Shown here piece after piece: positions 1-25,098 of a DNA stretch of 64,000 nucleotides. The position numbers and the translations under genes were made by a program. Under the pieces are notes generated by a model. It had not been told where the DNA came from, ran no database searches, and saw only the letters and a program-made list of their open reading frames with translations. Position 1 is the stretch's first letter, and the number at the start of each line of letters is the position of its first letter. Source of the DNA: an uncultured Bacteroidota bacterium (GTDB taxonomy: Bacteria; Bacteroidota; Bacteroidia; AKYH767-A; OLB10); assembly GCA_903847585.1 (NCBI GenBank), contig CAINEC010000174.1:11518-75517 (forward strand). Direction: 5' to 3'.

Positions 1-137
1 ATTTCAAGTTCTTTACCATGTGCTATGCAAGGTCCAAACAAATGTAATTCTGGAAATAAATTTACATTTGAATTATTCCCCAACATTCTACCCAACATGG
101 TAGTTCCCGATCTGCTGTTACCTACAATAAAAATCAT
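1..137 (-). CDS. Sulfotransferase, N-terminal fragment (gene runs off the left edge)
   Basis: Reverse-strand translation from the ATG at 137 gives MIFIVGNSRSGTTMLGRMLGNNSNVNLFPELHLFGP... GNSRSGTT is a PAPS 5'-phosphosulfate-binding loop. The ATG overlaps the stop of the upstream Wzy-like gene (ATGA at 134-137). It is absent from the ORF track because it has no stop in the window. Confidence 0.6.
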   Translation of the reverse strand, partial: MIFIVGNSRSGTTMLGRMLGNNSNVNLFPELHLFGPCIAHGKELE

Positions 138-3260: not shown

Positions 3261-3263
3261 CTT

Positions 3264-6897: not shown

Positions 6898-7055
6898 TTA
6901 GCAACATTCCAATATTAATAAATTGTAAAGAATGATTGTTAACTTTTTGTAGCACTTAACCCAAACATAATATTTTGTTTCGTTTTTCATCATGTAAGGT
7001 TTGGAATTTTGGGGCTTGAAAACTTATACCTAACAAACCACTAAAAACAACCAAC

Positions 7056-8141
7056 ATGAAAAGAATTTACCTAATTGCATTATTGCTTATTACGGGCTTT
7101 GTTTCTAAAGCTCAAAACGGATTAGAAAATGTAGTAGTAGAAACCTATTATATTTCTGATGCCAACGATACTAATGCTAATCTTGATGGTGGAATTCTGC
7201 CAGTAGGTTCAGTGACTTACAGAATTTATGCAGATATGTTGCCAGGCTACAAGTTTCAGGCTGCTTATGGTGTACCAGGACATGATTTGAAAATTGCAAC
7301 AACTACTTTATTCTGGAATAATGAAGATCGTGGTTCAACATCTCCTACTTTTTCAAAAACAAATGCAGCAAGAAATACAGTTATGATCGATTCATGGTTA
7401 TCTGTTGGTGCTGCTTGCAATGGAAACTTCGGAATTATGAAATCAATGGATGATGGTTTAAATAATGCAGTAAATAACTATTCTCCACAAGTTTTACAAA
7501 ATAACGACCCTGCAATGGGAATTCCATTAACAGTTCAGGATGGATTTTTTGCAGGATTACCTGAGTCTGTAACTACAGTTGGAATTAGTACTGAAGTTGC
7601 TGTTTTTGATAACCTGAATGATGGGACTAATGGTCCATTATTTTTTACGAATAATGGTTCTTGGGCTTCTTTAAATGGTTCAACTGGTCCTGATCCAATA
7701 GATAATAAAGTATTAATCGCACAAATCACTACAAATGGTACTTTATCATTCGAATTAAACATTCAGATTGGTACTCCGACAGGTGGCGTAGAAAATTTTG
7801 TTGCTTCAAATCCTGTGGGAAGTGAAATTTCTATTCCTTCACTTACGTACACATCTCCAAGCATTGGTATTTACACTCCTTCATCAAAAAATGTTTCTTT
7901 CTCTGCTTTCCCTAATCCTGTAGAAAACAGTTTATTTATTAATACTGCAAATATTAAATCAGAAGAAGTTGTTTATTCTATTTATGACTTAACAGGAAAG
8001 ATGGTTGCTACTGGTTTGTTTGCTGTTAATGCTCAAAAGAATATTCAGCAAATTGAAGTAGACAAATTAAATACAGGACTTTACTTTATTGAGTTATCAG
8101 TAAACGGAACAAGTTCAACGCAAAAATTCATTAAAAAATAA
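7056..8141 (+). CDS. Secreted protein, paralogue 2 of the unassigned domain family, with a T9SS C-terminal sorting domain
   Basis: Signal peptide followed by QNGLENVVVETYYISD, GSVTYRIYADMLPGYKFQA, DSWLSVGA, NGSWASLNGSTGP and LIAQITTNGTLSFELNIQIGTPTGGVENF. The C-terminus FSAFPNPVENSLFIN...GLYFIELSVNG...QKFIKK is a typical Por/T9SS CTD. Confidence 0.8.
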   Translation: MKRIYLIALLLITGFVSKAQNGLENVVVETYYISDANDTNANLDGGILPVGSVTYRIYADMLPGYKFQAAYGVPGHDLKIATTTLFWNNEDRGSTSPTFSKTNAARNTVMIDSWLSVGAACNGNFGIMKSMDDGLNNAVNNYSPQVLQNNDPAMGIPLTVQDGFFAGLPESVTTVGISTEVAVFDNLNDGTNGPLFFTNNGSWASLNGSTGPDPIDNKVLIAQITTNGTLSFELNIQIGTPTGGVENFVASNPVGSEISIPSLTYTSPSIGIYTPSSKNVSFSAFPNPVENSLFINTANIKSEEVVYSIYDLTGKMVATGLFAVNAQKNIQQIEVDKLNTGLYFIELSVNGTSSTQKFIKK

Positions 8142-8161
8142 AAGCCCTTACGACTTCTAAT

Positions 8162-11100
8162 ATGAAGAAGCCAATACTACTACTAGTAATCTTAATTTCT
8201 TGTGTTGTTAGTTCATTCGGGCAAGGAACAGTTCGCGGAAAAATAATTGACACCAATGGTGAAACGCTCATAGGCGTAACCGTTATGTTAAAAAATAATC
8301 GTTCAGTAGGTACAAGTTCAGATTTCGATGGAAATTATTCCCTGACCTTTAAAGATGCAGGCCCTCAAGTTTTAGTGTTTACATATGTAAGTTATAAAAC
8401 ACAAGAAATTACTGTTAATCCGGAAGGAAAAGTAGTAGTGAAAGATATCATCATGGAATCGTCAGCACAGGAGTTAAAAGGTGTTGAAGTTTCTGCGAAA
8501 GCAACAAAAGCAAGAGAGTATTTTTCTGAAATGGTGAAGAAAAATGCTGCTGTTTCGATGGATTATATTTCTTCTGAAACAATGAAGAAAACAGGAGACG
8601 CAAATGTTGTTGCTGCTGTTTCTCGTGTGTCTGGTGTTTCTACGAATGGTGGTTTTATTACTGTTAGAGGTATTGGCGATAGATATGTGAAAACATCGGT
8701 AAATGGTTCTATGATTCCAACATTAGATCCGTTTACTAATAATATCAAATTAGATTTATTTCCTGCTAGTTTAATTGACAACGTTTTTATTACTAAAACG
8801 GCAAGCCCTGATTTACCTGGTGATTGGGCAGGAGCATTTTTATCGGTAGAAACGAAAGACTATCCTGATAATCTTGCTATTAATGTAGAAACTAGTTTCG
8901 GTTATAATAATCAATCTTCATTTAAAAATGTTGTTTCTTCTGACAGAAGTTCAACGGATTGGTTAGGATACGATGATGGATTTAGAAGTTATGATCACGC
9001 GTCGTTTGCTTTTGCAAATACAGAGCCTACTTTATTGCAAACATTTTCTGCTTTAGGATTAGGAGATTACTTTAGTTCTTTAGGTGTAACTTCAATTGAT
9101 CCTACTGAAGATATTTTTAATACTTATTATAAATTAGGATTAGTACAATTAGGTTTGTTGGCACCAGCATTATTTGATGATCCAACTGCCTTTAATCAAG
9201 CTAAAGATTTATTTAATGCTGGAGGGTACAAGTCTGATGCATTTAACTCAATTAATGCTAATGCACCGGCTTCTGCAAAGAGGTTCGCAAATAACTGGAA
9301 TACTACTACATGGAATGCTCCTTTAAACTTTTCTCAAAGTTTTAGTATTGGTAATCAGGTTAATTTATTTGGAAGACCTTTAGGTTTTATTGCAGGATTT
9401 AAATACGGATCAAGTGTAGTATATGATCCACAATCAGAAGTAGTACGTTGGGTATATGATGAATTAGAAGGTCAGAAAAGAACGGAAAATATTTCACAGC
9501 AGGCTAGTCGTGAAACAAATGGTTGGAGTGCACTTTTTAACGTGGCTTATAAATTAAATCCTAATAACAGTGTTTCCTTTTTATTCATGCCAAATTTAAC
9601 AGGTGTAAATAATGTGCGTAATTCTTTTGATAACTCTGAACCGCAACTTACTCGTATTACAAAGAGTCAGTTTTTTGAGCAGAGAAGTCAATTGGTTTAT
9701 CAATATAAATCGGAACATTATATACCAAAGTATAAATTAAAAATTGAAGCAAATGCTTCCTATACCAATGGTAACAGCCAGATTCCGGATTTCAAAAATA
9801 TACGTTACATCGAAAATATTGATGGCACATTTCAAATTGAAGGAACAACAGGATCAATTGCTCGTTTTTATCGTTATTTGAATGATGATTTTTTTGATTC
9901 AAGAATTTCTTTTGAATTACCTATTTCAAAAGATACCACTGGATTATCACGCAAATTGAAATTTGGTGGCGCATATCAACGAAACAATAAGGAGTATGAC
10001 CAGTATCAATACGATGTAAGAACAGAAAGAAGTACGTTTTCTGGTGACTTAAATTCATTCTTGGATAACTCATATTTTGATATTCAGACTATTGGTGGTG
10101 TTTCATCTTTCTCTACCTATTACAATAGTTCAGAGTATAGCAACTTTGGCCCTGTTAATCATACTTTTGGAAATACGTCAATATTCGCTGGGTATGTAAT
10201 GTCGGATTATGCCATTAATAAGAAATTACGTGTGTCAGGTGGGGTAAGATTAGAAAAGGCAGATTTTTATACGGATGTGGTCTTGTTCGATTCGTTGAAT
10301 TATGCACCAGATGATGATAGACGAGTTTATGATAACAGCTTGCCGATTGCAAATCCTGGAGAGTTAAACGAGTTGAGTGTTTTACCAAGTATTAACGTAG
10401 TTTATAAGCTTAAAGAAAAAGAAGGAGCGCCTACTAATATTCGTTTGAATTATAGTAGCTCTGTTGCTCGTCCAAGCATTCGTGAGTTATCCGACATCGC
10501 AGTTTTTGATTACGAATATCGTTTAGCCGTAATAGGTAATTCAGATTTGAAAATGGTGAATATTAATAACTATGATATCCGCTATGAAAAATATTATCCT
10601 TCAGGAAATGATTTTTCTGCAAGTATGTTTTTCAAGACATTTAAAAATCACATCGAATTAGTTAACTCAAATTTCATTACTTGGCAAAATGTAGATTATT
10701 CTACTGTTGTAGGTGCAGAGTTTGAAGGCAAAAGAAAACTAACTAAGAAATTAGAAGGCCGTACCAATATTACTTTTGTTAAATCAGCAACAGAGGTTGT
10801 ACAAAGTACTATTTACGTAAATAATGGAATTAAGAATTTTGTGCCAATTGATACGGTTAAGCGTTCTATGTTCGGACAAGCACCTTATATCTTTAATGCT
10901 ATTTTGACATATAATGAAGATAGCCTTGGTTTAAGTGTATCATTATCGTATAATGTTCAGGGGCCACGATTGGTATTATCAGTAGGGCAGACAGATGTTC
11001 CAGATATTTTTGAGTTGCCTAGAAATACTATTGATTTAAAAGTGTCTAAAAAATTGGGTAAACACTTTACCGTTAGTTTAACAGGACGCGATTTATTAAA

Positions 11101-11272
11101 TGCTCCAATTGCGAGAGCCTATAATTATAGTGATGGTTCGTACGAATCAGGACTAGGGAATAGCATAAACAAGTTGTTTGATTCTCCAATCTTTAGAAAA
11201 GATTGGAATCAATCCTACGATAAATTTCGTTTCGGTTCTAGTTTCCAGGTAGGTGTTTCTTATAAGATATAA
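8162..11272 (+). CDS. TonB-dependent outer-membrane receptor with an N-terminal CarboxypepD_reg domain
   Basis: 1036 aa with a signal peptide. GTVRGKIIDTNGETLIGVTVMLKN is the carboxypeptidase-regulatory-like fold. The plug region is SRVSGVSTNGGFITVRGIGDRYVKTSVNGSMIP, followed by a long beta-barrel with alternating-residue strands to the C-terminus. Confidence 0.9.
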   Translation: MKKPILLLVILISCVVSSFGQGTVRGKIIDTNGETLIGVTVMLKNNRSVGTSSDFDGNYSLTFKDAGPQVLVFTYVSYKTQEITVNPEGKVVVKDIIMESSAQELKGVEVSAKATKAREYFSEMVKKNAAVSMDYISSETMKKTGDANVVAAVSRVSGVSTNGGFITVRGIGDRYVKTSVNGSMIPTLDPFTNNIKLDLFPASLIDNVFITKTASPDLPGDWAGAFLSVETKDYPDNLAINVETSFGYNNQSSFKNVVSSDRSSTDWLGYDDGFRSYDHASFAFANTEPTLLQTFSALGLGDYFSSLGVTSIDPTEDIFNTYYKLGLVQLGLLAPALFDDPTAFNQAKDLFNAGGYKSDAFNSINANAPASAKRFANNWNTTTWNAPLNFSQSFSIGNQVNLFGRPLGFIAGFKYGSSVVYDPQSEVVRWVYDELEGQKRTENISQQASRETNGWSALFNVAYKLNPNNSVSFLFMPNLTGVNNVRNSFDNSEPQLTRITKSQFFEQRSQLVYQYKSEHYIPKYKLKIEANASYTNGNSQIPDFKNIRYIENIDGTFQIEGTTGSIARFYRYLNDDFFDSRISFELPISKDTTGLSRKLKFGGAYQRNNKEYDQYQYDVRTERSTFSGDLNSFLDNSYFDIQTIGGVSSFSTYYNSSEYSNFGPVNHTFGNTSIFAGYVMSDYAINKKLRVSGGVRLEKADFYTDVVLFDSLNYAPDDDRRVYDNSLPIANPGELNELSVLPSINVVYKLKEKEGAPTNIRLNYSSSVARPSIRELSDIAVFDYEYRLAVIGNSDLKMVNINNYDIRYEKYYPSGNDFSASMFFKTFKNHIELVNSNFITWQNVDYSTVVGAEFEGKRKLTKKLEGRTNITFVKSATEVVQSTIYVNNGIKNFVPIDTVKRSMFGQAPYIFNAILTYNEDSLGLSVSLSYNVQGPRLVLSVGQTDVPDIFELPRNTIDLKVSKKLGKHFTVSLTGRDLLNAPIARAYNYSDGSYESGLGNSINKLFDSPIFRKDWNQSYDKFRFGSSFQVGVSYKI

Positions 11273-11276
11273 TACA

Positions 11277-12587
11277 ATGAAAACGATAATTAAATTCATA
11301 GCTCTGTTTTTGTTTATTGGATTAAACACGCAGGCGCAAATTCAAAATGTAATAGTTGAAAAATACTATGTTGCTGATTCATTCGATATTGCTAATACCG
11401 ATGGTGGTCAGTTGCAACAAGGTGCGGTGACTTATCGCGTATATGTTGACTTAGAAAGTGGAAGTAAAATTTCACGCATTTTTGCTGATTCATTGCATTT
11501 GTTAAAATTTAAAAGCAGTCAGCCTTTTTTTAATAACGACACTCTAAGTACTTTTAATGGAGGTACCTACGGATTTAAAATCAATAGAAATGATTTAGCA
11601 ATCAATACCGTTGGTTTAGATAGTTGGATTAGTATCGGTGCAGCAACAAATAAACATCATGGTATTTTAAAAACAGAAGATACCGATGGTACTGAAGTAG
11701 GTGGGACGAACAATGATCAGAATTTATTAAGTAATACCGATCCAAGTGCAGGTATTCCTTTAACAACGCAAGATGGTTTGATTTTATCAAGTGTACTTGT
11801 ATCAAACTATTTAGTAGGTGGCGATTTTCCGGCTATTAATTCATTAAACGATTCAACTATATTTGGTAGTGATACTGCAACAGCATTTATAACTCCAAAT
11901 GCTACCTTGCAATTTAATGGTGGTATATTAGGACAAGGTCCATCAAACAATGTATTGGTTGGTCAATTTACTACAGCTGGTCAATTGGAGTTTGAATTAA
12001 ACATTACCGTTATTGATAGTACGGGAGCTACAATTAATTATGTTGCTTCTGGTAATGACACAGTTATTCAAAATTCAATTTATAAATCATTGCCATTATT
12101 AAAGTATCCACCACAATGCGGATGTTTAGATCCTAATTATATTGAATACAATGCTCAAAATGCTTGCAGCGATTCTTCTAAATGTTTAACGTTGGTGAAG
12201 CTAGGTTGTATGGATACACTTGCATGTAACTATGATGTTGATGCAAATTACTCTGTACCTGAAATGTGTTGTTATCCTGGATACTGCAACGATCGTGATA
12301 TTGCATTTGTTTGTCCAGATATTAATACAGGGAATCGTATTATGACGGTGTTTCCAAATCCTACCAATAGCGAGATTAATATCAATCTTGATGGTGTAAA
12401 AAATATTGGTGAGACACAATTTGTGTTGTTGAACTCATTCGGGAAAGAGATGATGAACTTTTCAGAAAACATTTCAGAAGGCGTTTGGACAAAAAACATT
12501 TCGCTTAACAATTTAGTTAGTGGAATCTATATTTTAAAAATGATTTCTAACGAAGAAGTTCAATCGCAGGTCATCATTAAAAATTAA
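11277..12587 (+). CDS. Secreted protein, paralogue 3 of the unassigned domain family, with a Cys-rich module and a T9SS CTD
   Basis: ATG at 11277 (MKTIIKFIALFLF...AQ signal peptide); the track start at 11253 is a GTG inside the receptor gene. Shared blocks EKYYVADS, GAVTYRVYVDL, DSWISIGA, GILKTEDTDG, DPSAGIPLTTQDG and FTTAGQLEFELNI. The CTD is VFPNPTNSEININ...GIYILKM. Confidence 0.8.
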   Translation: MKTIIKFIALFLFIGLNTQAQIQNVIVEKYYVADSFDIANTDGGQLQQGAVTYRVYVDLESGSKISRIFADSLHLLKFKSSQPFFNNDTLSTFNGGTYGFKINRNDLAINTVGLDSWISIGAATNKHHGILKTEDTDGTEVGGTNNDQNLLSNTDPSAGIPLTTQDGLILSSVLVSNYLVGGDFPAINSLNDSTIFGSDTATAFITPNATLQFNGGILGQGPSNNVLVGQFTTAGQLEFELNITVIDSTGATINYVASGNDTVIQNSIYKSLPLLKYPPQCGCLDPNYIEYNAQNACSDSSKCLTLVKLGCMDTLACNYDVDANYSVPEMCCYPGYCNDRDIAFVCPDINTGNRIMTVFPNPTNSEININLDGVKNIGETQFVLLNSFGKEMMNFSENISEGVWTKNISLNNLVSGIYILKMISNEEVQSQVIIKN

Positions 12588-12589
12588 AA

Positions 12590-13342
12590 ATGGAAACAAC
12601 GTTTATGAATTACTTTAAAAAATATTTCTATTTATTTCTATTACTTTTTGTCATCACCATTGGATTTACAGCTTGTGATGATGATGAAGTGACACCTGTA
12701 ATTGTTAATGAAACAGGTAGTGTTACGGATATAGAAGGTAACGTGTATAAAACAGTTAAGATTAACGGTAAATGGTGGATGGCCGAAAATTTAAAAGTGA
12801 AAACTTTTAATGACGGAACATCCATTAACAATGGCCAAACAGATTTTAGCTGGAAGGATTCATTACCTGCTTATTGCTTGTATAATAATTTAGGAACTGC
12901 ACCAGGATTATTGTATAATTCATATGCTGTATTAAGTGCCAAAGGATTGGCTCCTCAAGGATGGCATATTGCAACCGATGAAGAATGGAAGGCCTTAGAA
13001 CAATCGCAGGGAATGTCTGCTGCAACAGCTAATTCATTTGGATGGAGAGGAAGTGATGAGGCTCAGAAATTAAAAATTGAAGGAGCTAAAGGATGGGTGC
13101 GTTATTTAGACCTATGGCCTACTAATGAGTCTGGTTTTTCAGCAAGTGCGGGTAGCTGCCGTTTGCCAAATGGTGTTTTTGGTGATCCTGGTTTAATGCA
13201 TACGGGATTTTGGTGGACAACAACAGCAGATAATGTAAGTGGTGAACTTTTGTATCGTTACATGGATTATAAGAAGACAAGTATTCTGCGATCGCACAGC
13301 GAAAATGGTTACGGATTCAGTGTTCGATGTGTCAAAGATTAA
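12590..13342 (+). CDS. FISUMP (Fibrobacter succinogenes major paralogous domain) lipoprotein
   Basis: Lipobox ITIGFTAC. Hallmark sequence TDIEGNVYKTVKINGKWWMAENLKV...GWHIATDEEW...GFWWTTT...GFSVRCVKD. Confidence 0.85.
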   Translation: METTFMNYFKKYFYLFLLLFVITIGFTACDDDEVTPVIVNETGSVTDIEGNVYKTVKINGKWWMAENLKVKTFNDGTSINNGQTDFSWKDSLPAYCLYNNLGTAPGLLYNSYAVLSAKGLAPQGWHIATDEEWKALEQSQGMSAATANSFGWRGSDEAQKLKIEGAKGWVRYLDLWPTNESGFSASAGSCRLPNGVFGDPGLMHTGFWWTTTADNVSGELLYRYMDYKKTSILRSHSENGYGFSVRCVKD

Positions 13343-13360
13343 ATCAAAAAAATCATAAAG

Positions 13361-13386
13361 AAGAGGCCCTTAGGGGCCTCTTTTAT
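13361..13386 (+). terminator. Rho-independent terminator after the FISUMP gene
   Basis: aagaggccc-ttag-gggcctctt perfect stem followed by a T-tract, 19 nt after the stop codon. Confidence 0.8.
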
Positions 13387-13536
13387 TTTAATGTTAACAG
13401 AATGTATTTTCAAAGTAAATGTCTTAACATTAAAGTGCTTTAAAGGTAAAGATTTCATAAGTTATTTTTTCAGTTAAATTTTTGTTGGCGTTCTACTTTT
13501 GGTGCAGGAAAAATAAAAAACCAAAATTATAAACCA

Positions 13537-15213
13537 ATGAAAAAATTAATTACAAGAATTGCATTAGCAGCATCGGCTGTATTTGCATTGGCAACAACAT
13601 CGTTTGCCCAAACAAATTTAGGAGCAGATTGCGGATGTCCATCTGTATCTAACCGTACTACAACTGTTTTATTATCATCTCTAGCTACCGTAGGTGGTAC
13701 TGATGATGGTAACTTAACAGATTCTATCACTATCCTTGATTGTTCAAAATTGTACATCTTGGATAAGAAAATTTATGTGCCTAATGGAAAATCGTTAATT
13801 ATTAACCCAGGTGTTGTTGTTAAAGCTCGCTCTTATTCTACTGCCGATTCAGCTGTTGCATTAACAGTTTCAAGAGGAGGTAAAATTTTCGCTAATGGAA
13901 CTGAATCATGTCAGATCGTATTTACTGCTGAAGCAGATCCAATGGATGGAACTTATGCATTATCAAACAAAGGAAAATGGGGTGGTATTGCTATCGCTGG
14001 TAAAGCAACAAACAACTTAAAGTTATCTCCAAACGGTCCTTTCTCTGTTGGTGTTGCTGGTAAAATTTGTGTTGCTGATGGATTAGGAACTTTCGAAGGT
14101 TTCAACTCAACTAACTACAAAGATCAATTTGGTGCTAATTTAACAGCAGGTGAAACTTTTAATGATAATGATAACTCAGGTATCATGACTTATGTTTCTA
14201 TCCGTCACTCAGGAGCTATCCTAGTTTTAGGTGGTGAGTTAAATGGTCTTTCTTTAGGTTCAGTAGGTCGTGGAACAACAATCGATCATATCGAGATTGT
14301 TTCTTGCGCTGATGATGCAATTGAAATGTTTGGTGGAACTGTAAACGTAAAGCACTATACTACATTATTTAACAATGATGATATGTATGATTATGATTTA
14401 GGATATACAGGAAAGGGTCAATTCATTTTTGGTATCTATGCTTCTGATACTACAGTTAGTGCTGATGCTGATAACGCTTTCGAAATGGATTCTGATGATC
14501 AAAAATCAAACTTACTTCCTCGTTCACATCCTGTTGTTTACAATGCTACAATGATTGGTAACAATAAGAAAACATTATCTGCTGATAATTCAGGTTTATC
14601 TGTTTTCCAAGCAAAAGAATTAGCTGAAGGTGAGTTTTACAATTCAGTTTTTGCAAACTTCCGTTATGGTTTAAATTTAATTAAGTCTGTTGGTACAAGA
14701 ACAGGTGGTTTCGAAGCATACCATAACTGGGCTAATACAGGTGGTAATTCAACTAACAGCTTAAAAATTAAGTGTAATGCATTTGTTGGTATAACAAAAG
14801 ATATCGCTATCGATAAAAATGCTGCTACAGCAGTTTCTGCTACTGACTCTGCACAATTCTTTACTACTGACTTAAATACAAGCTTTGCGTCATTACCAGG
14901 ATTCGTTCCAACATGGGCTGCAAACTTTACTACTAACACTGTTACTACAAAGTTTGATGCAGTTCCAAATCCACAAATCACCAACGCTGCAGGATGTCCT
15001 ACACCAGCAGCTGATGGTTTCTTCACTCCAGTAACTTACAAAGGTGCATTCCCTGCTACAGGTAAAAACTGGTTATCAAACTGGGCTTACGCTCAACTAC
15101 TTAACGTTACTACAGGATTACAGCCATGTGCTACTGATTGTAATGCTGATGGTATTACAAACAACGTTGACTTCTTACAATTATTAGGACAATTCAATCA
15201 GTCTTGTCAATAA
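13537..15213 (+). CDS. Secreted protein with beta-helix-like repeats and a C-terminal dockerin-like Ca-loop motif; function unknown
   Basis: Signal peptide MKKLITRIALAASAVFALATTSFAQ. Repetitive G/N/T-rich rungs (NATMIGN, YNSVFANF) and acidic motifs DDAIEMFGGTVN and DNAFEMDSDD. The tail is CATDCNADGITNNVDFLQLLGQFNQSC. Confidence 0.6.
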   Translation: MKKLITRIALAASAVFALATTSFAQTNLGADCGCPSVSNRTTTVLLSSLATVGGTDDGNLTDSITILDCSKLYILDKKIYVPNGKSLIINPGVVVKARSYSTADSAVALTVSRGGKIFANGTESCQIVFTAEADPMDGTYALSNKGKWGGIAIAGKATNNLKLSPNGPFSVGVAGKICVADGLGTFEGFNSTNYKDQFGANLTAGETFNDNDNSGIMTYVSIRHSGAILVLGGELNGLSLGSVGRGTTIDHIEIVSCADDAIEMFGGTVNVKHYTTLFNNDDMYDYDLGYTGKGQFIFGIYASDTTVSADADNAFEMDSDDQKSNLLPRSHPVVYNATMIGNNKKTLSADNSGLSVFQAKELAEGEFYNSVFANFRYGLNLIKSVGTRTGGFEAYHNWANTGGNSTNSLKIKCNAFVGITKDIAIDKNAATAVSATDSAQFFTTDLNTSFASLPGFVPTWAANFTTNTVTTKFDAVPNPQITNAAGCPTPAADGFFTPVTYKGAFPATGKNWLSNWAYAQLLNVTTGLQPCATDCNADGITNNVDFLQLLGQFNQSCQ

Positions 15214-15254
15214 GCAATTAGTACAATTAATAATTATTATTAGAAATTTATTTT

Positions 15255-18200
15255 ATGAAAAAAATATTTAGTTTAATATTCGTTTTATCTGCATTGTTTG
15301 TTAGCAAATCGAATGCACAAAATGGATTAGAAAACGTAATCATCGAAAAGTATTACGTTTCTAACGCAGCAGATTCAGCTGCTAGCGCTACTGCAGCTGG
15401 TGGTAACTTACCTGTTGGTTCTGTAACTTACCGTATCTATGCTGATATGTTACCTGGTTATAAATTCCAGGCATTATATGGTGTTGCTGCACATCCTTTA
15501 ACAATTTCTTCTAGTACAACTTTCTTCAACGAAGAAAACTTTGGTGGAACTAGTCCTAATGGTATCTCTGCAAATAACAACAGAAGAAATGCTGTTATGT
15601 TAGATTCTTGGTTCTCAGTAGGAGCTTCAAGTGCTGGTAAAATGGGTGTATTAAAAACAGAAGATACTGATGGTTCAGTAGGTAACGCAAACAGTGTTTT
15701 AGCAAATGCTGATCCTTCTGCCGGAATCGCTATCTCTATTCAAGACGGACAAGTTGTTGCTACTCCTCAAGCAGTAACGTTTGTAGGTATTAATAACACA
15801 GGTAATGGTGACTTAGGAATTTTTGATGCAACTTCTGGCGTAGGTGGTTCATTCACTACATCAAATGGTTCTATCGCATCATTAAATGGTTCAACTGGTC
15901 CAACTGCAACTAACCGTGTATTAATTGGTCAGTTTACTACTAATGGTATCTTCACTTATGCATTAAACATTCAGGTAGGTACTCCTACAGGTGGTGTTCA
16001 AAATTTCGTTTCTTCAAATCCAACAGGGGCTGAAATTACGATTGCAAGTTTATCAGGAACTGTAGGTGCACCAAATGCATTACCAGCTGTATCATTTACT
16101 TCTCCTACTAATGGAGCAAGCTTTATTACAGGTTCATCAATCAGTTTAGAAGCTAATGCAACTGATGCTGATGGTACAATTACTCAAGTTGAATTCAAAG
16201 TTGATGGTGTTTCTGTAGGTGTTGATGCTACTGCTCCTTATACTGCATCTTATACAGGTGTTATTGGAACTCGTACATTAACTGCAACTGCTACAGATGA
16301 TCAAGGTGGTGTTACAACTGCTACAATCACTATCACAGTTTCTGCTAATCCCGCTCCAACTTGTACAATTACAGCTCCAACAAATGGTGCTAGTTTAATT
16401 ACAGGTGATGTAGTAAGTATCACTGCTAATGCAACAGATAATGGTTCTGTTACTCAAGTAGAATTCTTCGTTGACGGTGTATCTATTGGTACTGATGCTA
16501 CTTCTCCTTATGCTGCATCATGGACAGCTGTATTAGGTTCTCATTCTATTACTGCTGTTGCAACTGATGACCAAGCTGCAACAACAACTTCTACAGCAGT
16601 AGGTGTTAGCGTATTAAACAACGTTCCTCCTTCATGTTCAATTACTGCTCCTTCAGCTGGTGCTTTATATACAGCTCCTGCTGCAGTTAATATTACAGCA
16701 ACTGCAACTGACGGTGACGGATCAATCGCTAGCGTTGGTTTCTATGTAAATAACGTTTTAGTTGGAACAGATAACACTTCTCCTTATTCATTCTCTTGGA
16801 CAAGCGTAATCGGAAATGCTTCATTAACAGTTAAAGCAACTGACGATCGTGGTGCTATCACTACTTCTTCTGCAGTAGCTATTAGTATTGCTGATCCAAA
16901 TGCATTGCCGTATAATGTTCAATCTACAGTGGCGTCTTGTACTGAGACTACCGTTTGTATTCCAGTTATTGCATTCGATACAGTTGCTAACGTAATTGGA
17001 TATGATGTAGTAATGAACTACGACAAGACTAAATTAACTCCAACGGGAAATATCACAGTTGGTAGCGACTTAATCAACCCTTCTTTTGTAACGGCTATTA
17101 ACAGCATCGATACAACAAATAGCAAGATTACGATCGCTTTATTTTTAAACTCTGCAGCTCCTGCATCTACTAAGTTTACAGGTGTTGGTAATGTGTTCTG
17201 TGTTGAGTTCAACAAAACTGCAACATTTACTTCAACAGATGTAACAACTGTTTCTGTTTCAACATTACAAGAAAGTTATTTCAATGGTGTAACAGGAAAG
17301 TTAGTTCAATCAGGAACCTATCAAGCATTCAAAGATTCTGCTTACTCTGGTAAGTTAGCATTCTGGTCAAACAACTCGCCTATTAAGTACAACGCAGCTA
17401 ATCCTAATCAGTATTTAGCAACAACAATCAATGGTAACAATGCAAACTGTAATTTACCATCTTCAACTGTTACTAATCCTGATACATTAGGTAATTTCAG
17501 TTACAATGTAAATGATGGTGTTAACATTAACATCAATAAGGATATCCCTGCAACAACGGATATGCAACCAGTTATCAATGGATTCGATGCATTAAGAGCT
17601 CGTCAGGTATTATTAAATGACTTAACGTTCGTTCCTAATGTTTATCAAATCATTGCTATGGATGTTAACCAGGATGGAGTTGTATCTGCTGGTGACGTTT
17701 CTCAGATCAACCAACGTACAGTATTATTAATTGGTGAGTTCCGTCAAGCATGGAACTATAACGCGCAAGGTGTATCAAACGGACAGTTATCTAAAGACTG
17801 GAGTTTCGTTGATTCTGCAACGGTAGCTACAAATGCTGCATTTACAATCTCTGCAACTTATCCAAGTAATGATGGAGTAGGTTTCTCTAAATTTAAAGTT
17901 CCAGTATTGTCATTCTGTTCTCCAGTAAACGCAGTTACTTCTACTGCTTGTCCTACAATTTCAACAATGACTTACAAAGGAATTTTAATTGGTGATATCG
18001 ATGGAAACTATGCTACTGTTAATCCTAACACAGCATTCCGTTCATCTGAAAAAGTTACAATGGATTTATCAAAAGCTACAGTAGAAAATGGTTACATCAA
18101 TGTGCCAGTATTAATTTCTTCTACGCAAGATGTTAATTCATTAGACTTCGCTTTACAATTCAATACTTCTGCAATGTCATTCAATACAGTTGTTGATAGA

Positions 18201-18659
18201 ACAAACACAATGGAAACATTGTCGAACTTCAACAATGATGATCAAACTTTACGTTTCACTTCTAACAGCTTGACAAACTACGCTTTGAACGCTCAGATTT
18301 TAAATGTGAAATTTGCTATCGGAAGTCATGAAGTTTCTGCTAACGATTTCAACGCAGTTGCTGCTTACATCAATGGTGAGCGTGTAGCTTTCGAAGTTGC
18401 TAACGGACAAATTTCAGGAGCTGGTGCTATTGTTAATGTTTATCCTAACCCTGCAACTGATATGATTAATGTAGTTGTAAGTGAAGATGCAACAGTACAA
18501 TTAGTAGACGTATCTGGTCGTCAGGTAATTTATCAAACAAATGTATTAGCTAACGAAGCTGCTTCAATCAGCACTGCTTCTATTGCTAATGGCGTTTACT
18601 TGATGAAAGTTTACAATGGAACTAATGTTTCTGTAAAGAAAGTTGTTGTAAACAAATAA
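15255..18659 (+). CDS. Large multidomain secreted protein, paralogue 4: unassigned N-domain, 3 Ig-like repeats, cohesin-like, dockerin-like, cohesin-like, T9SS CTD
   Basis: 1134 aa. The N-terminus is QNGLENVIIEKYYVSN...GSVTYRIYADMLPGYKFQA...DSWFSVGA...VLIGQFTTNG. The cohesin-like block is VIGYDVVMNYDKTKLTP, the dockerin-like loop is MDVNQDGVVSAGDVSQINQRTVLL, and the CTD is VNVYPNPATDMINV...GVYLMKVYNG...VVVNK. Confidence 0.8.
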   Translation: MKKIFSLIFVLSALFVSKSNAQNGLENVIIEKYYVSNAADSAASATAAGGNLPVGSVTYRIYADMLPGYKFQALYGVAAHPLTISSSTTFFNEENFGGTSPNGISANNNRRNAVMLDSWFSVGASSAGKMGVLKTEDTDGSVGNANSVLANADPSAGIAISIQDGQVVATPQAVTFVGINNTGNGDLGIFDATSGVGGSFTTSNGSIASLNGSTGPTATNRVLIGQFTTNGIFTYALNIQVGTPTGGVQNFVSSNPTGAEITIASLSGTVGAPNALPAVSFTSPTNGASFITGSSISLEANATDADGTITQVEFKVDGVSVGVDATAPYTASYTGVIGTRTLTATATDDQGGVTTATITITVSANPAPTCTITAPTNGASLITGDVVSITANATDNGSVTQVEFFVDGVSIGTDATSPYAASWTAVLGSHSITAVATDDQAATTTSTAVGVSVLNNVPPSCSITAPSAGALYTAPAAVNITATATDGDGSIASVGFYVNNVLVGTDNTSPYSFSWTSVIGNASLTVKATDDRGAITTSSAVAISIADPNALPYNVQSTVASCTETTVCIPVIAFDTVANVIGYDVVMNYDKTKLTPTGNITVGSDLINPSFVTAINSIDTTNSKITIALFLNSAAPASTKFTGVGNVFCVEFNKTATFTSTDVTTVSVSTLQESYFNGVTGKLVQSGTYQAFKDSAYSGKLAFWSNNSPIKYNAANPNQYLATTINGNNANCNLPSSTVTNPDTLGNFSYNVNDGVNININKDIPATTDMQPVINGFDALRARQVLLNDLTFVPNVYQIIAMDVNQDGVVSAGDVSQINQRTVLLIGEFRQAWNYNAQGVSNGQLSKDWSFVDSATVATNAAFTISATYPSNDGVGFSKFKVPVLSFCSPVNAVTSTACPTISTMTYKGILIGDIDGNYATVNPNTAFRSSEKVTMDLSKATVENGYINVPVLISSTQDVNSLDFALQFNTSAMSFNTVVDRTNTMETLSNFNNDDQTLRFTSNSLTNYALNAQILNVKFAIGSHEVSANDFNAVAAYINGERVAFEVANGQISGAGAIVNVYPNPATDMINVVVSEDATVQLVDVSGRQVIYQTNVLANEAASISTASIANGVYLMKVYNGTNVSVKKVVVNK
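16076..16900 (+). repeat. Three tandem ~92-aa Ig-like (Big_7-type) coding repeats inside the 15255 gene
   Basis: The units begin ALPAVSFTSPTNGASFITG, NPAPTCTITAPTNGASLITG and NVPPSCSITAPSAGALYTA. Each contains ATD..G.(I/V)..V.F.V(D/N)..(S/L)(V/I)G.D...PY. and a T(A/V).ATDD.(G/A) block. Confidence 0.8.
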
Positions 18660-18674
18660 TAATTTTCTAATCTT

Positions 18675-18711
18675 AAAAGGTCGGTTCAAGTTTTTTGAAC
18701 CGACCTTTTTT
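18675..18711 (+). terminator. Rho-independent terminator after the 15255 gene
   Basis: ggtcggttcaa-gtttt-ttgaaccgacc perfect 11-bp stem flanked by an upstream A-run and a downstream T6 run. Confidence 0.85.
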
Positions 18712-18736
18712 ATAACTAGAATAAACTAATAAACCA

Positions 18737-19474
18737 ATGATGAAAAAATTACTAATACTATTATTTATTTTCTTTTCATGTAATGTTATGGCTCAAGAAA
18801 ATAAATCAACTGCTGCTCCTGAGCAAATGGATGTGCAAACAATAGACGCTTTAGATAGCGTAATTTTTGATTGCTCCCAATTAACTGGAGTAAGTGGACC
18901 AATACAAATTCCTGTTTCAATTAAATCGGATGATTTAGTTTATTCGGTAGATTTTTCATTGAAGTATGATCATGCAGCTTTGCAATATGATACTACAGTT
19001 AATGTGACAACTTACTTATCAGGATTATCTAATTACTTTACAATCGATTCTACCATTCGTTTTACATCGAGTACGTTTACTCCATGTACAAACGATACAA
19101 CACTGGCATTAATTAAATTTATACTGTTAGCGCCATCGTTTAATAATGGAAGTATTTTTACGTTAAAAGGCTACTTAAATGGTACACTTTGTAGTGTTAA
19201 GTATATACCACCTTCACCGGTTGGACTAACAGAAAATACTATTGAGAATTTTAGTATTTATCCAAATCCAGCAAATGATGCAGTAACAATAAACTTCAAA
19301 AATTCCACAGCATTAAGCGTGGTTAATTTATTCGGACAAACTATTTATTCAGAAAATATTGAAGGTTTATCTTCAACTATGTTGAATACTTCGGAATATG
19401 CGAATGGCGTTTACTTTATTAAAGTAGACACAAATAAAGGAAGCGGGATACAAAAAGTAATTGTATCACATTAA
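18737..19474 (+). CDS. Secreted cohesin-like domain protein with a T9SS CTD
   Basis: Signal peptide. IQIPVSIKSDDLVYSVDFSLKYDHAALQYD...IRFTSSTF parallels the second cohesin-like module of the 15255 product (LDFALQFNTSAMSFN...LRFTSNSL). The CTD is FSIYPNPANDAVTINF...GVYFIKVDT...IVSH. Confidence 0.7.
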   Translation: MMKKLLILLFIFFSCNVMAQENKSTAAPEQMDVQTIDALDSVIFDCSQLTGVSGPIQIPVSIKSDDLVYSVDFSLKYDHAALQYDTTVNVTTYLSGLSNYFTIDSTIRFTSSTFTPCTNDTTLALIKFILLAPSFNNGSIFTLKGYLNGTLCSVKYIPPSPVGLTENTIENFSIYPNPANDAVTINFKNSTALSVVNLFGQTIYSENIEGLSSTMLNTSEYANGVYFIKVDTNKGSGIQKVIVSH

Positions 19475-19476
19475 AA

Positions 19477-20865
19477 TTAATACTCTTCTTCTGAAACAGA
19501 CATTGCTTCTTGTAGTGTCTGTTTTTGTTTTTCAGCTTCTTTGTATTGTCGGATAAATTCACTGTACCAGTAGCCAGAACTTTTAATTGTTCTTTTCTGA
19601 TTTTTATAATTCACGTGTACAATTCCAAAGCGTGGTGCATAGCCTTCCGACCATTCAAAATTATCAAGCAACGACCAAACAAAATAACCATTCACCTTCA
19701 TTCCTTCTTCTTTCGCTCTAAGTAGTTGCTGAACGTAGGATTTTAAATATTCTACTCTTCTTACATCATTCACTTCACCATCAGGAAGTACTTCATCTTT
19801 AAAAGCAGCACCGTTTTCGGTCACATATATTTCTGAAATATGACGATAGGAATTAAACTTCTTTATCATTTCATATAACGACTCTGGATAAATTTCCCAG
19901 TTCATTATTGTGCGATCTACATTTCTGCTTTTAGCATCTATTATTTTAGCTTTTAAAACAGGTTGAAGAAAATTATGCTTTACTACTTCGCGCGTATAAT
20001 TTTGGACACCGATAAAATCTGGACAGGCTTTGATTAATTTATTATCTCCTGGCAACATATATTTTTCTAGTCGCGATAAAAAAGGAAGATCATGAATAGG
20101 ATATCCATATCCCAATAATGGCTCAACAAATAATCTATTTATTAGTGCATCCACTTTATTACTTGCAATAATATCATTTTCATTATTAGGATTGTTAGGC
20201 GATATATGTGAGCAGGAAAATGTAGTACCCACGTGAGCATCTTTTACATTTTCTTTTAGTGTTTTAATTCCTTGTGCTTGACAGATTGCGGTATGATGTA
20301 ATGCAGGGAAGTAATTGCTTTCTCCTTTTCTACCTGGCGCATGAACACCTAAATAATATCCTGCACCTGTAAATACAACAGGTTCATTCAATACCATCCA
20401 GTTCTTTACGCGATCACCTAATTTTTTTGCAACAACTTCGGTGTAGTTGTTAAACCAACTTATAATATCGCGATTTGTCCAGCCACCTTTAAGTTCTAAT
20501 GCATGTGGCAAATCCCAATGATATAATGTGATCCAAGGAGTGATATCATTTTCTAAACATTCATCCACCAAACGATCGTAAAAACTAATTCCTTTGTGAT
20601 TAATGAAACCTTCTCCAAACGGAATTACTCTAGGCCATGAAATAGAAAATCGGAAATTGGGTATTCCTAATTGTTTTAAAAGTTGGATATCGTTTTTGTA
20701 TTGATAAAAAAAGTCACAGGCATGATCACCTTTATGATTATTCTGAATTTTATTTTTTCGTTTACAAAACTCATCCCATATAGATGCTCTCTTTCCATCA
20801 GCATATTTTCCACCTTCAATCTGGTAAGCGGAGGTAGCAACCCCCCAAACAAATTCATCTCTCAT
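19477..20865 (-). CDS. Glycoside hydrolase family 1 beta-glucosidase, no signal peptide (cytoplasmic)
   Basis: N-terminus FVWGVATSAYQIEGG, acid/base motif VLNEPVV, nucleophile motif YVTENGAAF, and C-terminal WSLLDNFEW. Confidence 0.9.
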   Translation of the reverse strand: MRDEFVWGVATSAYQIEGGKYADGKRASIWDEFCKRKNKIQNNHKGDHACDFFYQYKNDIQLLKQLGIPNFRFSISWPRVIPFGEGFINHKGISFYDRLVDECLENDITPWITLYHWDLPHALELKGGWTNRDIISWFNNYTEVVAKKLGDRVKNWMVLNEPVVFTGAGYYLGVHAPGRKGESNYFPALHHTAICQAQGIKTLKENVKDAHVGTTFSCSHISPNNPNNENDIIASNKVDALINRLFVEPLLGYGYPIHDLPFLSRLEKYMLPGDNKLIKACPDFIGVQNYTREVVKHNFLQPVLKAKIIDAKSRNVDRTIMNWEIYPESLYEMIKKFNSYRHISEIYVTENGAAFKDEVLPDGEVNDVRRVEYLKSYVQQLLRAKEEGMKVNGYFVWSLLDNFEWSEGYAPRFGIVHVNYKNQKRTIKSSGYWYSEFIRQYKEAEKQKQTLQEAMSVSEEEY

Positions 20866-23823: not shown

Positions 23824-25098
23824 TTAAACAATCATTCCTGCTGCCACTGTTTCGTTGGTAGCTTCATCAATTAAAATAACACTTCCTGTATGACGGTTTT
23901 TACGATATGAATCGAAGTAAAGAGGAACCGTTGTTTTAACATTGATTCGTGCAATATCATTCATCGCAATCTCTTTATCTGATTCATTACGATGCATCGA
24001 GTTAATATCCACTTTATAACGAATGTCTTTAATCACACAACGAGCATCTTTTACCGTATGACGAATAGCATACTTGCCACCAACTTGTAAATTGTTTGCA
24101 TTCATCCAGCAAATCATCACATCAAATTCCTGCTCCATCGATGGAACATTGTTTTCACGCACAATCATATCACCACGACTAATATCTACATCGCGGTCTA
24201 ACGTCATCGTTACCGACATAGGAGCATAAGCTTCTGAAATTTGTTCGCCAAATAACTCAATCGTTTTTACTTCTGCTGTTTCTCCGCTAGGAAGGATTTT
24301 TACTTTATCGCCTGGCTTATAAATTCCACTCGCAATTCTTCCAGCGTAGCCTCTGAAATCGTGATACTCGGTTTGTTGTGGACGAATAACATACTGCACA
24401 GGGAAACGACAATCAATATGATTTTCATCGCTGCCAATATGTAAGTTCTCTAACAAGTACATCAATGTCGTTCCTTGGTACCAAGGCATGTTTGTCGACT
24501 TATCTACAACGTTATCTCCTTTCAATGCACTGATTGGTAAAAAGTGAACGTCTTTAATATCCAGCTTCGTCGATAAGTTTCTGTATTCTTCCACTACCTT
24601 CGAGAATACTTCTTCAGAATAATCAACAAGATCCATTTTATTCACGCAAATAATCAAATGCGGAATTTGCAGCAACGATGCAATGAATGAATGTCGGATA
24701 GTTTGTTCTAAAATTCCTTTACGTGCATCTACTAAAATCAAAGCAGCATTGGCTGTTGATGCACCGGTAACCATGTTACGTGTATACTGAATATGTCCTG
24801 GAGTATCAGCAATAATAAATTTACGTTTCGGAGTAGCAAAATAACGATATGCTACGTCAATTGTAATTCCTTGCTCACGCTCTGCTTTTAGTCCATCAGT
24901 TAATAAACTTAAATCAACGTGCTCAAATCCACGCTGCTGACTTCTCTGTTCAATTGCTTCTAATTGATCTTCAAAAATCTGTTTTGAATCGTAAAGCAAA
25001 CGACCGATTAACGTACTTTTTCCATCATCAACACTACCGGCTGTGGTAAACCGAAGTAGTTCCATGTTCATATAACCTTCACTGCTAAAATCGCTCAT
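23824..25098 (-). CDS. cysN: Sulfate adenylyltransferase subunit 1 (GTPase) CysN
   Basis: G-domain motifs GSVDDGKSTLIGRLL, DTPGH and NKMD. At 424 aa it has no fused APS-kinase domain. Confidence 0.9.
   Translation of the reverse strand: MSDFSSEGYMNMELLRFTTAGSVDDGKSTLIGRLLYDSKQIFEDQLEAIEQRSQQRGFEHVDLSLLTDGLKAEREQGITIDVAYRYFATPKRKFIIADTPGHIQYTRNMVTGASTANAALILVDARKGILEQTIRHSFIASLLQIPHLIICVNKMDLVDYSEEVFSKVVEEYRNLSTKLDIKDVHFLPISALKGDNVVDKSTNMPWYQGTTLMYLLENLHIGSDENHIDCRFPVQYVIRPQQTEYHDFRGYAGRIASGIYKPGDKVKILPSGETAEVKTIELFGEQISEAYAPMSVTMTLDRDVDISRGDMIVRENNVPSMEQEFDVMICWMNANNLQVGGKYAIRHTVKDARCVIKDIRYKVDINSMHRNESDKEIAMNDIARINVKTTVPLYFDSYRKNRHTGSVILIDEATNETVAAGMIV

Follow-up and report, generated by a model that had tools for sequence, protein, structure and literature searches.

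Assembly of secreted proteins through cohesins and dockerins has been studied mostly in Gram-positive cellulosomes. In Clostridium thermocellum, the scaffoldin CipA carries a cohesin, an X module and a type II dockerin in succession (CohI9-X-DocII; 4fl4, 3kcp), and OlpA and OlpC (3ul4, 4dh2) combine a single cohesin with a surface anchor. Outside cellulose degradation, such modules join secreted proteins in the NagJ/NagH-type complexes of Clostridium perfringens (2w1n, 2ozn, 2jh2) and, in the archaeon Archaeoglobus fulgidus, are represented by the cohesin 2xdh. Cargo of the T9SS (type IX secretion system) is encoded within TonB-receptor or polysaccharide-utilisation loci for the capture and uptake of substrates, for example ChiA of Flavobacterium johnsoniae; to our knowledge, no cohesin or dockerin modules have been described in ChiA-type loci. 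Cloacimonadota and Bacteroidota belong to the same FCB superphylum. In the candidate genus 'Ca. Stygibacter', known from metagenome-assembled genomes (MAGs) of Cloacimonadota, a cohesin scaffoldin with a T9SS C-terminal domain (CTD) and signal-peptide proteins ending in dockerins have been inferred (Williams et al. 2021, PMC8542988). Bacteroidetes genomes have been said to be without cohesins and dockerins (PMC5831590), and dockerins have been reported in rumen Prevotella and Bacteroides (PMC6487960). Here we analyse a 64,000-nt stretch of DNA (hereafter, the window) from an uncultured Bacteroidota bacterium (assembly GCA_903847585.1, contig CAINEC010000174.1, positions 11,518 to 75,517), in which three adjacent genes encode a beta-helix protein with a dockerin-like tail (bh558), a large scaffoldin-like protein (big1134) and a small cohesin protein (c245). 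The modules of these proteins genuinely belong to the cohesin fold and to the dockerin profile, and circumstantial evidence suggests that the proteins form a putative, self-assembling surface complex.

The three genes and their modules are located as follows.

13537–15213, plus strand: bh558, a secreted 558-aa beta-helix protein
15127–15210, plus strand: candidate half-dockerin at the C-terminus of bh558 (C531...C557), an EF-hand loop and the helix FLQLLGQF
15255–18659, plus strand: big1134, a 1134-aa T9SS cargo protein, scaffoldin-like
15318–16079, plus strand: domain X of big1134 (alignment A6)
16068–16889, plus strand: three tandem Big_7 (bacterial Ig-like) domains, a spacer (PF17957, E = 4.3 × 10−53, three stretches; PDB matches 9x9r, 3pdd and 9kvu)
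16911–17300, plus strand: cohesin A, aa 553–682, type I-like fold (Pfam matches of homologues, AlphaFold2, Foldseek)
17313–17540, plus strand: module of beta strands, X-like in position, that separates cohesin A from the dockerin (AlphaFold2 strands, model residues 148–223, blockwise predicted local distance difference test score (pLDDT) about 87–97)
about 17547–17729, plus strand: internal dockerin, aa 765–825 (PF00404, PDB profile matches, AlphaFold2 helices)
17730–18050, plus strand: post-dockerin extension of about 90 aa (invariant columns of alignments A3 and A5; AlphaFold2)
18051–18416, plus strand: cohesin B, aa ~933–1054 (BLASTP to c245, Pfam matches of homologues, AlphaFold2)
18438–18656, plus strand: T9SS type A CTD of big1134 (PF18962, 49.2 bits; TIGR04183, 44.4 bits)
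18737–19474, plus strand: c245, a 245-aa protein of signal peptide, short linker, cohesin and CTD
about 18854–19231, plus strand: cohesin of c245 (PF00963)
19256–19465, plus strand: T9SS CTD of c245 (PF18962, 57.6 bits; TIGR04183, 43.5 bits)

Behind its signal peptide, big1134 carries, in order, domain X, three Big_7 domains, cohesin A, the X-like module, the dockerin, the extension, cohesin B and the CTD. Both big1134 and c245 combine a signal peptide with a CTD that scores above the curated cut-off, and both thus qualify as T9SS type A cargo; signal peptides were read from the sequence by eye. For c245, the original prediction of essentially one cohesin-like module plus a T9SS CTD was accurate: the isolated module matches PF00963 with 25.0 bits (23.8 bits in the full protein; gathering score, 24.1 bits), and the CTD matches Por_Secre_tail with 57.6 bits. 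Both PF00963 and PF18962 are found in most c245 orthologues, and NCBI lists one of these as a 'cohesin domain-containing protein'. By analogy, c245 resembles an anchoring scaffoldin. NCBIfam contains no named family for bh558, big1134 or c245 other than the CTD.

Two further cohesin-like modules had been proposed in big1134, at about 16909–17290 and about 18050–18410, and both were recovered, as cohesins A and B, respectively. As isolated modules, neither segment of the window matches Pfam directly, so their membership in PF00963 rests on transitivity: 11 of the 24 cohesin A homologues (alignment A1) match PF00963 (best E = 1.9 × 10−5), as do 12 of the 28 members of the cohesin B family (alignment A2; best E = 7 × 10−7). 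Cohesin B and the c245 module are of the same subtype (BLASTP E = 1 × 10−16, 29% identity over 116 residues). Cohesin A shows pairwise similarity to neither, and because the profile-profile comparison of cohesins A and B gave no significant match (hhalign E = 0.09, probability 0.6), we treat the two as divergent subtypes and not as demonstrated close paralogues. A search with aa 540–1062 found 105 proteins that keep the whole block of cohesin A, dockerin and cohesin B; the relatives are 33–63% identical where most of the query is covered, and many carry precomputed matches to PF00963 and/or PF00404. In profile searches of the PDB, cohesin B was closest to 2xdh, the non-cellulosomal Archaeoglobus cohesin (E = 0.023), and the profile of the full cassette (CohA-XDoc-CohB-CTD) matched 2xdh (E = 0.0037) and the NagJ cohesins of C. 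perfringens (E = 0.006–0.08). The cohesin A profile matched no cohesin by sequence; its only matches, to K channels (E about 0.02), were rejected as spurious, so that the fold assignment required structure prediction.

We therefore rely for cohesin A on two AlphaFold2 models, one of aa 540–1134 of big1134 (model 1; mean pLDDT 89.2, predicted TM score (pTM) 0.68) and one of aa 540–930, comprising cohesin A and the middle region and excluding cohesin B (model 2; pLDDT 92.0, pTM 0.76). The strands of cohesin A occupy residues 14–143 of model 2, and those of cohesin B occupy residues 394–515 of model 1. Foldseek comparison of model 2 with the PDB returned almost only cohesins, including 5nrm_A, 4uyp_C, 3ul4_A (OlpA), 1anu and 2xdh; for type I cohesins, the target-normalised TM score (TMt) was 0.71–0.76, with a root-mean-square deviation of 3.1–3.7 Å, E between 1 × 10−7 and 5.6 × 10−9, and about 146–150 aligned columns for those at TMt 0.73–0.76 (deviation 3.1–3.5 Å). 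On the strength of these matches, module A, as modelled, is a cohesin fold, a flattened beta-sandwich of the jelly-roll kind. The top matches of model 2 were the CipA CohI9-X-DocII chains 4fl4_L, 4fl4_I and 4fl4_C together with 3kcp_A (E about 3 × 10−10, 232–327 columns), and the cohesin dyad 3l8q was among the top matches of model 1. The modelled succession of cohesin, beta module and dockerin resembles the C-terminus of a scaffoldin.

The EF-hand, dockerin-like segment that had been placed at about 17560–17735 was found at 17547–17729. It matches PF00404 (Dockerin_1; gathering score, 22.9 bits) with 24.0 bits as an 80-aa segment and with 22.6 bits in the full protein (aa 773–820), and all 28 of its homologue segments match the same family (best E = 8 × 10−7). 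When the profile of this dockerin family was compared with the PDB, almost all matches were dockerins (4fl4_A, E = 4 × 10−4; 8zvk, CelD, 4dh2_B and 2ccl_B). AlphaFold2 places helices at aa 776–786, 796–802 and 812–822. The second Ca loop, D803-V-N-Q-D-G-V-V-S-A-G-D814, is canonical, with positions 1, 3, 5, 6 and 12 invariant (alignment A4). The first loop is degenerate (T-x-D-x-Q-P...), and the PF00404 alignment begins at profile position 9; the first repeat retains its helix in the model (residues 237–247). The extension that follows the dockerin is strongly conserved (EFxQAWNY...SKDW...GILxGDxxGNY), and its blockwise pLDDT is mostly above 90, with lower values near model residues 351–360 and 381–391. 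The X-like module, the dockerin and the extension are predicted to form one compact unit of about 225 aa, denoted X-Doc by analogy with type II and type III dockerins.

The adjacent protein bh558 has a Sec signal peptide (cleavage, as judged by eye, after SFA and before Q25) and lacks both a lipobox and a T9SS CTD. The full protein matches no Pfam or NCBIfam family, and its homologues carry precomputed matches to PF28492 (Beta_helix_4); in the PDB, it has no sequence relative, even by profile, the lone match, to HbP1 (E = 0.12), having been dismissed as chance. The single dockerin-like loop between Cys residues that the original prediction had seen at the end of this 558-aa protein is present: its last 28 residues are C531-A-T-D-C-N-A-D-G-I-T-N-N-V-D-F-L-Q-L-L-G-Q-F-N-Q-S-C557-Q, with D534, N536, D538, G539 and D545 at loop positions 1, 3, 5, 6 and 12 (D1, N3, D5, G6 and D12) and a Cys on both sides. 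The tail thus has the Ca-ligand pattern of an EF-hand followed by an amphipathic helix, and it shares with the internal dockerin the only EF-hand-type loops among all open reading frames (ORFs) of the window. It consists of a single repeat, not two, and its score against PF00404 is not significant (13.5 bits, E = 0.084), which is what a lone repeat should give. Pfam and NCBIfam detected no resemblance to T9SS CTDs of either type A or type B.

The tail is kept in all 120 listed homologues (of 2,503 matches), whose ending is xC plus one residue, most often Q, N, H or D, and it stands at the extreme C-terminus in every bh558 homologue tail recovered from related loci. C531, D534, D538, G539, D545, F546, L547 and C557 are invariant in an alignment of 29 sequences (alignment A7). 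Per-position entropy across 186 distinct tails shows that positions 1, 6 and 12 (D1, G6 and D12) never vary, that both Cys are strongly conserved together with positions 3, 5, 8, 13, 14, 16 and 20 (among them N3, D5, T8, F13 and F20), and that positions 4, 7, 10, 11, 15, 19, 22 and 23 are variable. In several related loci, small proteins of 148–297 aa encoded just past the cassette gene, two of them with an Ig-like domain, end in two tandem copies of the tail motif, and these tandem tails exceed the PF00404 threshold (29.2, 29.1 and 24.2 bits). Judged by sequence, the bh558 tail is best described as a half-dockerin that is homologous to the two-repeat versions and is not, alone, a member of the family; the single repeat and the failed PF00404 match are the reasons for this name in place of 'dockerin'. 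Among the searches with the cohesin and dockerin models that had been proposed as a check, the internal dockerin and the c245 cohesin reached the gathering threshold as isolated segments and fell just short of it in the full proteins, whereas the window's cohesins A and B and the bh558 tail gave no significant match. Similarity by profile or by structure, whose complete absence would have spoken against the original prediction, was found in PF00963, in PF00404 and with Foldseek.

A scan of species-representative genomes identified 232 relatives of the cassette. The locus counts given here come from the loci of the best 80 of these (81 loci in some counts). All of the 80 best loci are from MAGs of uncultured bacteria, and nearly all are labelled Bacteroidota; the three labelled Bifidobacterium breve (L047), Actinomyces viscosus (L072) and Candidatus Kuenenia stuttgartiensis (L079) are probably mislabelled or mis-binned. 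With genes numbered by their start in the window, the order 7056-like, TonB-dependent receptor (TBDR), 11253-like, Fib_succ_major, bh558, big1134 and c245 recurs in the loci examined and in one JGI contig. Of the 81 loci, 68 contain bh558, 57 the Fib_succ_major gene and 50 the TBDR, counts that are limited by contig ends. Most of the 80 loci keep the trio in the order of beta-helix protein with half-dockerin, cassette protein and small cohesin-CTD protein. The gene directly upstream of the cassette is bh558 in 57 of the 63 loci with enough flank, a small gene for a cohesin plus a CTD lies downstream in 53 of 68, and an extra small dockerin-tailed protein is encoded in 13 of 68. When all ORFs of the 81 loci were considered, a terminal dockerin-like loop was found in 83, none of which has a CTD or a cohesin; the same loci contain 255 ORFs with a CTD in total, and 141 cohesin ORFs have a CTD.

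The cassette itself varies in architecture. We identified B-A-XDoc-B-CTD proteins, secreted CohB-XDoc proteins without a CTD and CohA-XDoc proteins without a CTD; CTD-less proteins consisting of a signal peptide, a cohesin and X-Doc (P0067 and P0070) end about 15 residues past the GDVNGNY motif. Stand-alone modA-Doc or modB-Doc proteins also occur, making Coh-XDoc the conserved minimal unit, and by analogy these variants would behave like adaptor scaffoldins. The beta-helix family comprises 5,167 clusters at 50% identity (E up to 0.001). Of the best 150 representatives of this family (P0264–P0413), 39 have a T9SS CTD at their end and 46 a dockerin-like tail (41 single, 5 tandem), at least 6 more have variant tails outside the regular expression, and the remainder end in other recurrent motifs. 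Such alternation of CTD and tail on homologous passengers is expected of alternative surface-attachment devices. The other endings include '...(R)FYRV/FYRAV...' and 'DxNxxG...DLxxLVxYLFxGGPxPxxC', which may be further sorting or anchoring tags. A separate exchange of the same kind was seen in two loci (L018:7121-8530 and L040:6911-8278), where a domain-X protein has two C-terminal GDxNxDGAxDGSDFL repeats (Dockerin_1, 21.9 bits) in place of the T9SS CTD of the window's 7056 paralogue.

We further compared the divergence of the modules by a crude mirror-tree analysis in 38 loci, with the beta-helix body controlled. The tail was correlated with the internal dockerin (partial r = 0.57) and with the c245-type cohesin (partial r = 0.37, reached in 1 of 500 permutations) and more weakly with cohesin A (0.23); its divergence did not follow that of cohesin B (0.11) or of the CTD (0.01). 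For the internal dockerin, a correlation was seen with each of the three cohesins (partial r = 0.39–0.62).

Compared with the described systems, the locus shares assembly modules with C. thermocellum: CohI9-X-DocII of CipA is the best structural match to CohA-X-Doc (cohesin TMt about 0.75), c245 follows the same logic as OlpA and OlpC, and the internal dockerin profile matches C. thermocellum dockerins. Here, however, the host is a Gram-negative Bacteroidota bacterium, the anchor is a T9SS CTD and not a set of SLH repeats, the dockerin is internal, with two flanking cohesins, a degenerate first loop and the extension of about 90 aa, and the putative partner bears one repeat between two Cys. 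Pfam and NCBIfam scans found no glycoside hydrolase, polysaccharide lyase, carbohydrate esterase or carbohydrate-binding module (CBM) family in any operon product; with no carbohydrate-active enzyme or CBM recognised, the locus does not encode a cellulosome and shares the assembly modules alone. By sequence profile, the nearest cohesins are those of the NagJ/NagH-type complexes and 2xdh, which likewise join secreted proteins outside cellulose degradation; those systems, however, are Gram-positive or archaeal, have neither a T9SS nor a TBDR operon, and use dockerins with two full repeats. The locus resembles that of 'Ca. Stygibacter' in being known from a MAG, in its T9SS-CTD scaffoldin-like protein, predicted to be surface-attached, and in its secreted proteins with dockerin-like tails, but the 'Ca. 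Stygibacter' scaffoldin is 3,755 aa long, with tandem cohesins and CBMs, and its predicted docked proteins are recognisable hydrolases and peptidases (PMC8542988), whereas here a compact three-gene set lies in a TBDR operon, X-Doc is flanked by cohesins of two subtypes, one protein ends in a half-dockerin, and none is recognisable as an enzyme. With ChiA-type loci it shares secreted, CTD-bearing proteins encoded together with a TonB-dependent receptor; it differs from them also in that the receptor is not part of a SusC/SusD pair: the TIGR04056 match of the TBDR in NCBIfam is confined to its N-terminus, and Pfam and NCBIfam scans of eight operon products yielded no match to SusD.

The idea of a cohesin scaffoldin anchored by a T9SS CTD is not wholly new, given PMC8542988, and automatic annotation already names some orthologues 'cohesin domain-containing protein'. 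The literature that we found on T9SS with cohesins or dockerins comprises the Cloacimonadota inference and general reviews only, and we found no published description of this Bacteroidota operon, of the CohA-XDoc-CohB-CTD cassette or of the Cys-bracketed half-dockerin. The original prediction knew of no description of cohesin-dockerin pairing inside a TonB-receptor locus; we likewise located none of the operon, and a T9SS-CTD cohesin scaffoldin had already been inferred in 'Ca. Stygibacter' (PMC8542988).

In our judgement, it is somewhat probable that the products of the three genes make up a cohesin-dockerin system of the non-cellulosomal kind, joined to the T9SS, in which CTD-anchored scaffolds hold CTD-less, dockerin-tagged partners near the TBDR. 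Under this model, big1134 and c245 would be exported by the T9SS via their CTDs and would remain attached to the cell surface, where they would present three cohesins belonging to two divergent subtypes (A, and B together with c245). These cohesins would capture dockerin-bearing partners in a Ca2+-dependent manner; the beta-helix protein would be one partner, via its disulfide-bracketed single-repeat tail, and in other genomes the small Ig-plus-tandem-dockerin proteins would be further ones. X-Doc of big1134 would bind in trans, either cross-linking scaffold copies or binding the c245 anchor. In this way, domain X and beta-helix modules would be gathered beside the TBDR in a layer of several proteins that captures or processes a substrate. 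This assembly fits the conservation of the trio, the distribution of tails and CTDs over separate proteins, the alternation of CTD and tail in the beta-helix family and the CTD-less proteins with a signal peptide and Coh-XDoc.

The same modules could instead be structural. The cohesins might serve as Ig-like stalks or spacers, or bind non-protein ligands, with the dockerin-like elements acting as Ca2+-stabilised caps and no pairing between molecules, as might be suspected from the divergence of the window's cohesins A and B, too great for Pfam alone, from the degenerate first loop of an internal dockerin embedded in a compact unit (pTM 0.76), from the single repeat of the bh558 tail, and from the widespread occurrence of non-cellulosomal cohesin and dockerin modules of unknown role (Peer et al. 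2009, to judge from its citation in PMC8542988). We consider this explanation possible but doubtful, as it does not account for a conserved cohesin-plus-anchor protein, c245, beside the scaffold, for the restriction of terminal tails to CTD-less proteins and their alternation with CTDs, or for the small Ig-plus-tandem-dockerin proteins inside the trio. Its position makes it conceivable, though improbable, that the Cys-bracketed tail of bh558 is a sorting or processing signal for an export, anchoring or modification machinery and not a cohesin ligand: in all 120 listed homologues it is at the extreme C-terminus, with the Cys followed by one residue, and elsewhere in the family its place is taken by the T9SS CTD or by other recurrent motifs (FYRV, YLFxGGPxPxxC). 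Yet its loop is a textbook EF-hand/dockerin Ca loop with positions 1, 6 and 12 invariant and positions 3 and 5 nearly so, its tandem versions pass Pfam Dockerin_1, it is unlike type A and type B T9SS CTDs, and cohesin genes co-occur in the same operon. Finally, X-Doc could bind a cohesin of its own polypeptide, as a cis clasp, or of another copy, giving a self-capped protein or a homopolymeric fibre in which the beta-helix protein takes no part. The conserved minimal Coh-XDoc unit with its stand-alone modA-Doc and modB-Doc forms, the high pTM of the multi-domain model and the correlation of internal dockerin divergence with all three cohesins (partial r = 0.39–0.62) are in line with this arrangement, to which we nevertheless assign a low probability; it would leave unaccounted for the dockerin-like tail that the neighbouring beta-helix protein conserves.

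Several observations weigh against the anchored-scaffold assembly that we prefer. The window's own cohesins A and B are reached in Pfam through their homologues and not directly, and in the model the internal dockerin, as part of a compact unit, could be occupied or buried in cis. We know of no single F-hand repeat or single-repeat dockerin that binds a cohesin. With a Sec signal peptide and neither a CTD nor a lipobox, bh558 has no known route to the Bacteroidota surface, and its passage across the outer membrane would be unexplained unless it hitch-hikes on T9SS cargo. The original prediction had further counted the 5818 product among the CTD-less partners; it is indeed without a CTD, but Pfam and a loop scan of the window ORFs found no dockerin-like element in it, so nothing marks it as a docked partner, and we rejected it as one. 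A strict tie of the cassette to the TBDR operon was likewise rejected, as one relative (P0009) lies in an unrelated neighbourhood. The mirror-tree correlations are confounded by phylogeny and are weak evidence, a hint only, and the metatranscriptome contigs described below can stem from DNA carry-over.

Near-identical copies of the region occur in lake and other freshwater metagenomes and in some labelled marine plankton. In one freshwater (lake) metatranscriptome, contigs match bh558, big1134 and c245 exactly, and the three-gene set appears to be transcribed in lake water. Contigs of two metatranscriptome runs (X24 and X30) join position 17006 to position 17732 across 725 nt, with 24 nt on the shorter side; this junction is probably an assembly chimera of related sequences.

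The plus-strand genes from 5818 to 19474 form one operon-like block, whose upstream part is composed as follows.

5818–13342, plus strand: upstream part of the operon (Pfam and NCBIfam scans)
start 5818, plus strand: product with domain X and Big_7
start 7056, plus strand: product with domain X and a CTD
8162–11272, plus strand: TonB-dependent receptor (TBDR)
start 11253, plus strand: product with domain X, a Cys-rich segment and a CTD
12590–13342, plus strand: Fib_succ_major lipoprotein

The description of this block as a T9SS locus needs correction, since T9SS cargo is encoded here and no T9SS machinery genes are present at the locus. Domain X occurs in four paralogous copies of about 250 aa each (5872–6627, 7113–7895, 11340–12152 and 15318–16079), which are 39–55% identical to the first sequence of alignment A6 and begin with QNGLE directly after the signal peptide. 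It has no Pfam match and no PDB relative, even by profile, and is likely the functional head, perhaps ligand-binding, of the operon's surface proteins. The 11253 product contains, between its domain X and its T9SS CTD, a Cys-rich segment of about 70 aa (12100–12350; CGCLDPNY...CCYPGYCNDRDIAFVC) that matches no family. In the Fib_succ_major protein, a lipobox precedes a stretch of acidic residues (...GFTAC-DDDE), which we take to resemble the surface-lipoprotein export signal of Bacteroidota; with this stretch, the protein would be a lipoprotein on the cell surface that partners the TonB receptor.

Directly upstream of the operon, on the minus strand (134–5565), lie three tandem sulfotransferase genes, a gene for a Wzx-type flippase and a Wzy-like gene (O-antigen ligase family), and downstream, at 23824–25098, a gene for an EF-Tu-family GTPase that is possibly CysN-like, a guess from its domain set. 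Together, these genes suggest a sulfated surface-polysaccharide cluster adjoining the operon. The sole recognisable glycosidase near the locus is a GH1 beta-glucosidase (E = 1 × 10−144), encoded on the minus strand at 19477–20865, convergent with the end of the operon.

A bolder proposal, which we regard as speculative and unlikely to hold as a whole, is that a disulfide-stapled single F-hand is a minimal cohesin tag and that CTD-less periplasmic proteins with a half-dockerin or an X-dockerin bind cohesins on CTD-bearing cargo and cross the T9SS translocon with it as folded complexes (hitch-hiker secretion), so that abundant freshwater Bacteroidota would assemble a surface complex associated with the receptor. 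If the pairing of cohesins and dockerins at this locus is true, it would pose a sharp question of how CTD-less partners cross the outer membrane, would provide a minimal one-repeat dockerin as a possible tag for protein engineering, and would flag two large uncharacterised families, the Beta_helix_4 proteins and domain X. It would also offer a testable model of how T9SS-bearing bacteria build surface machines around an uptake receptor.

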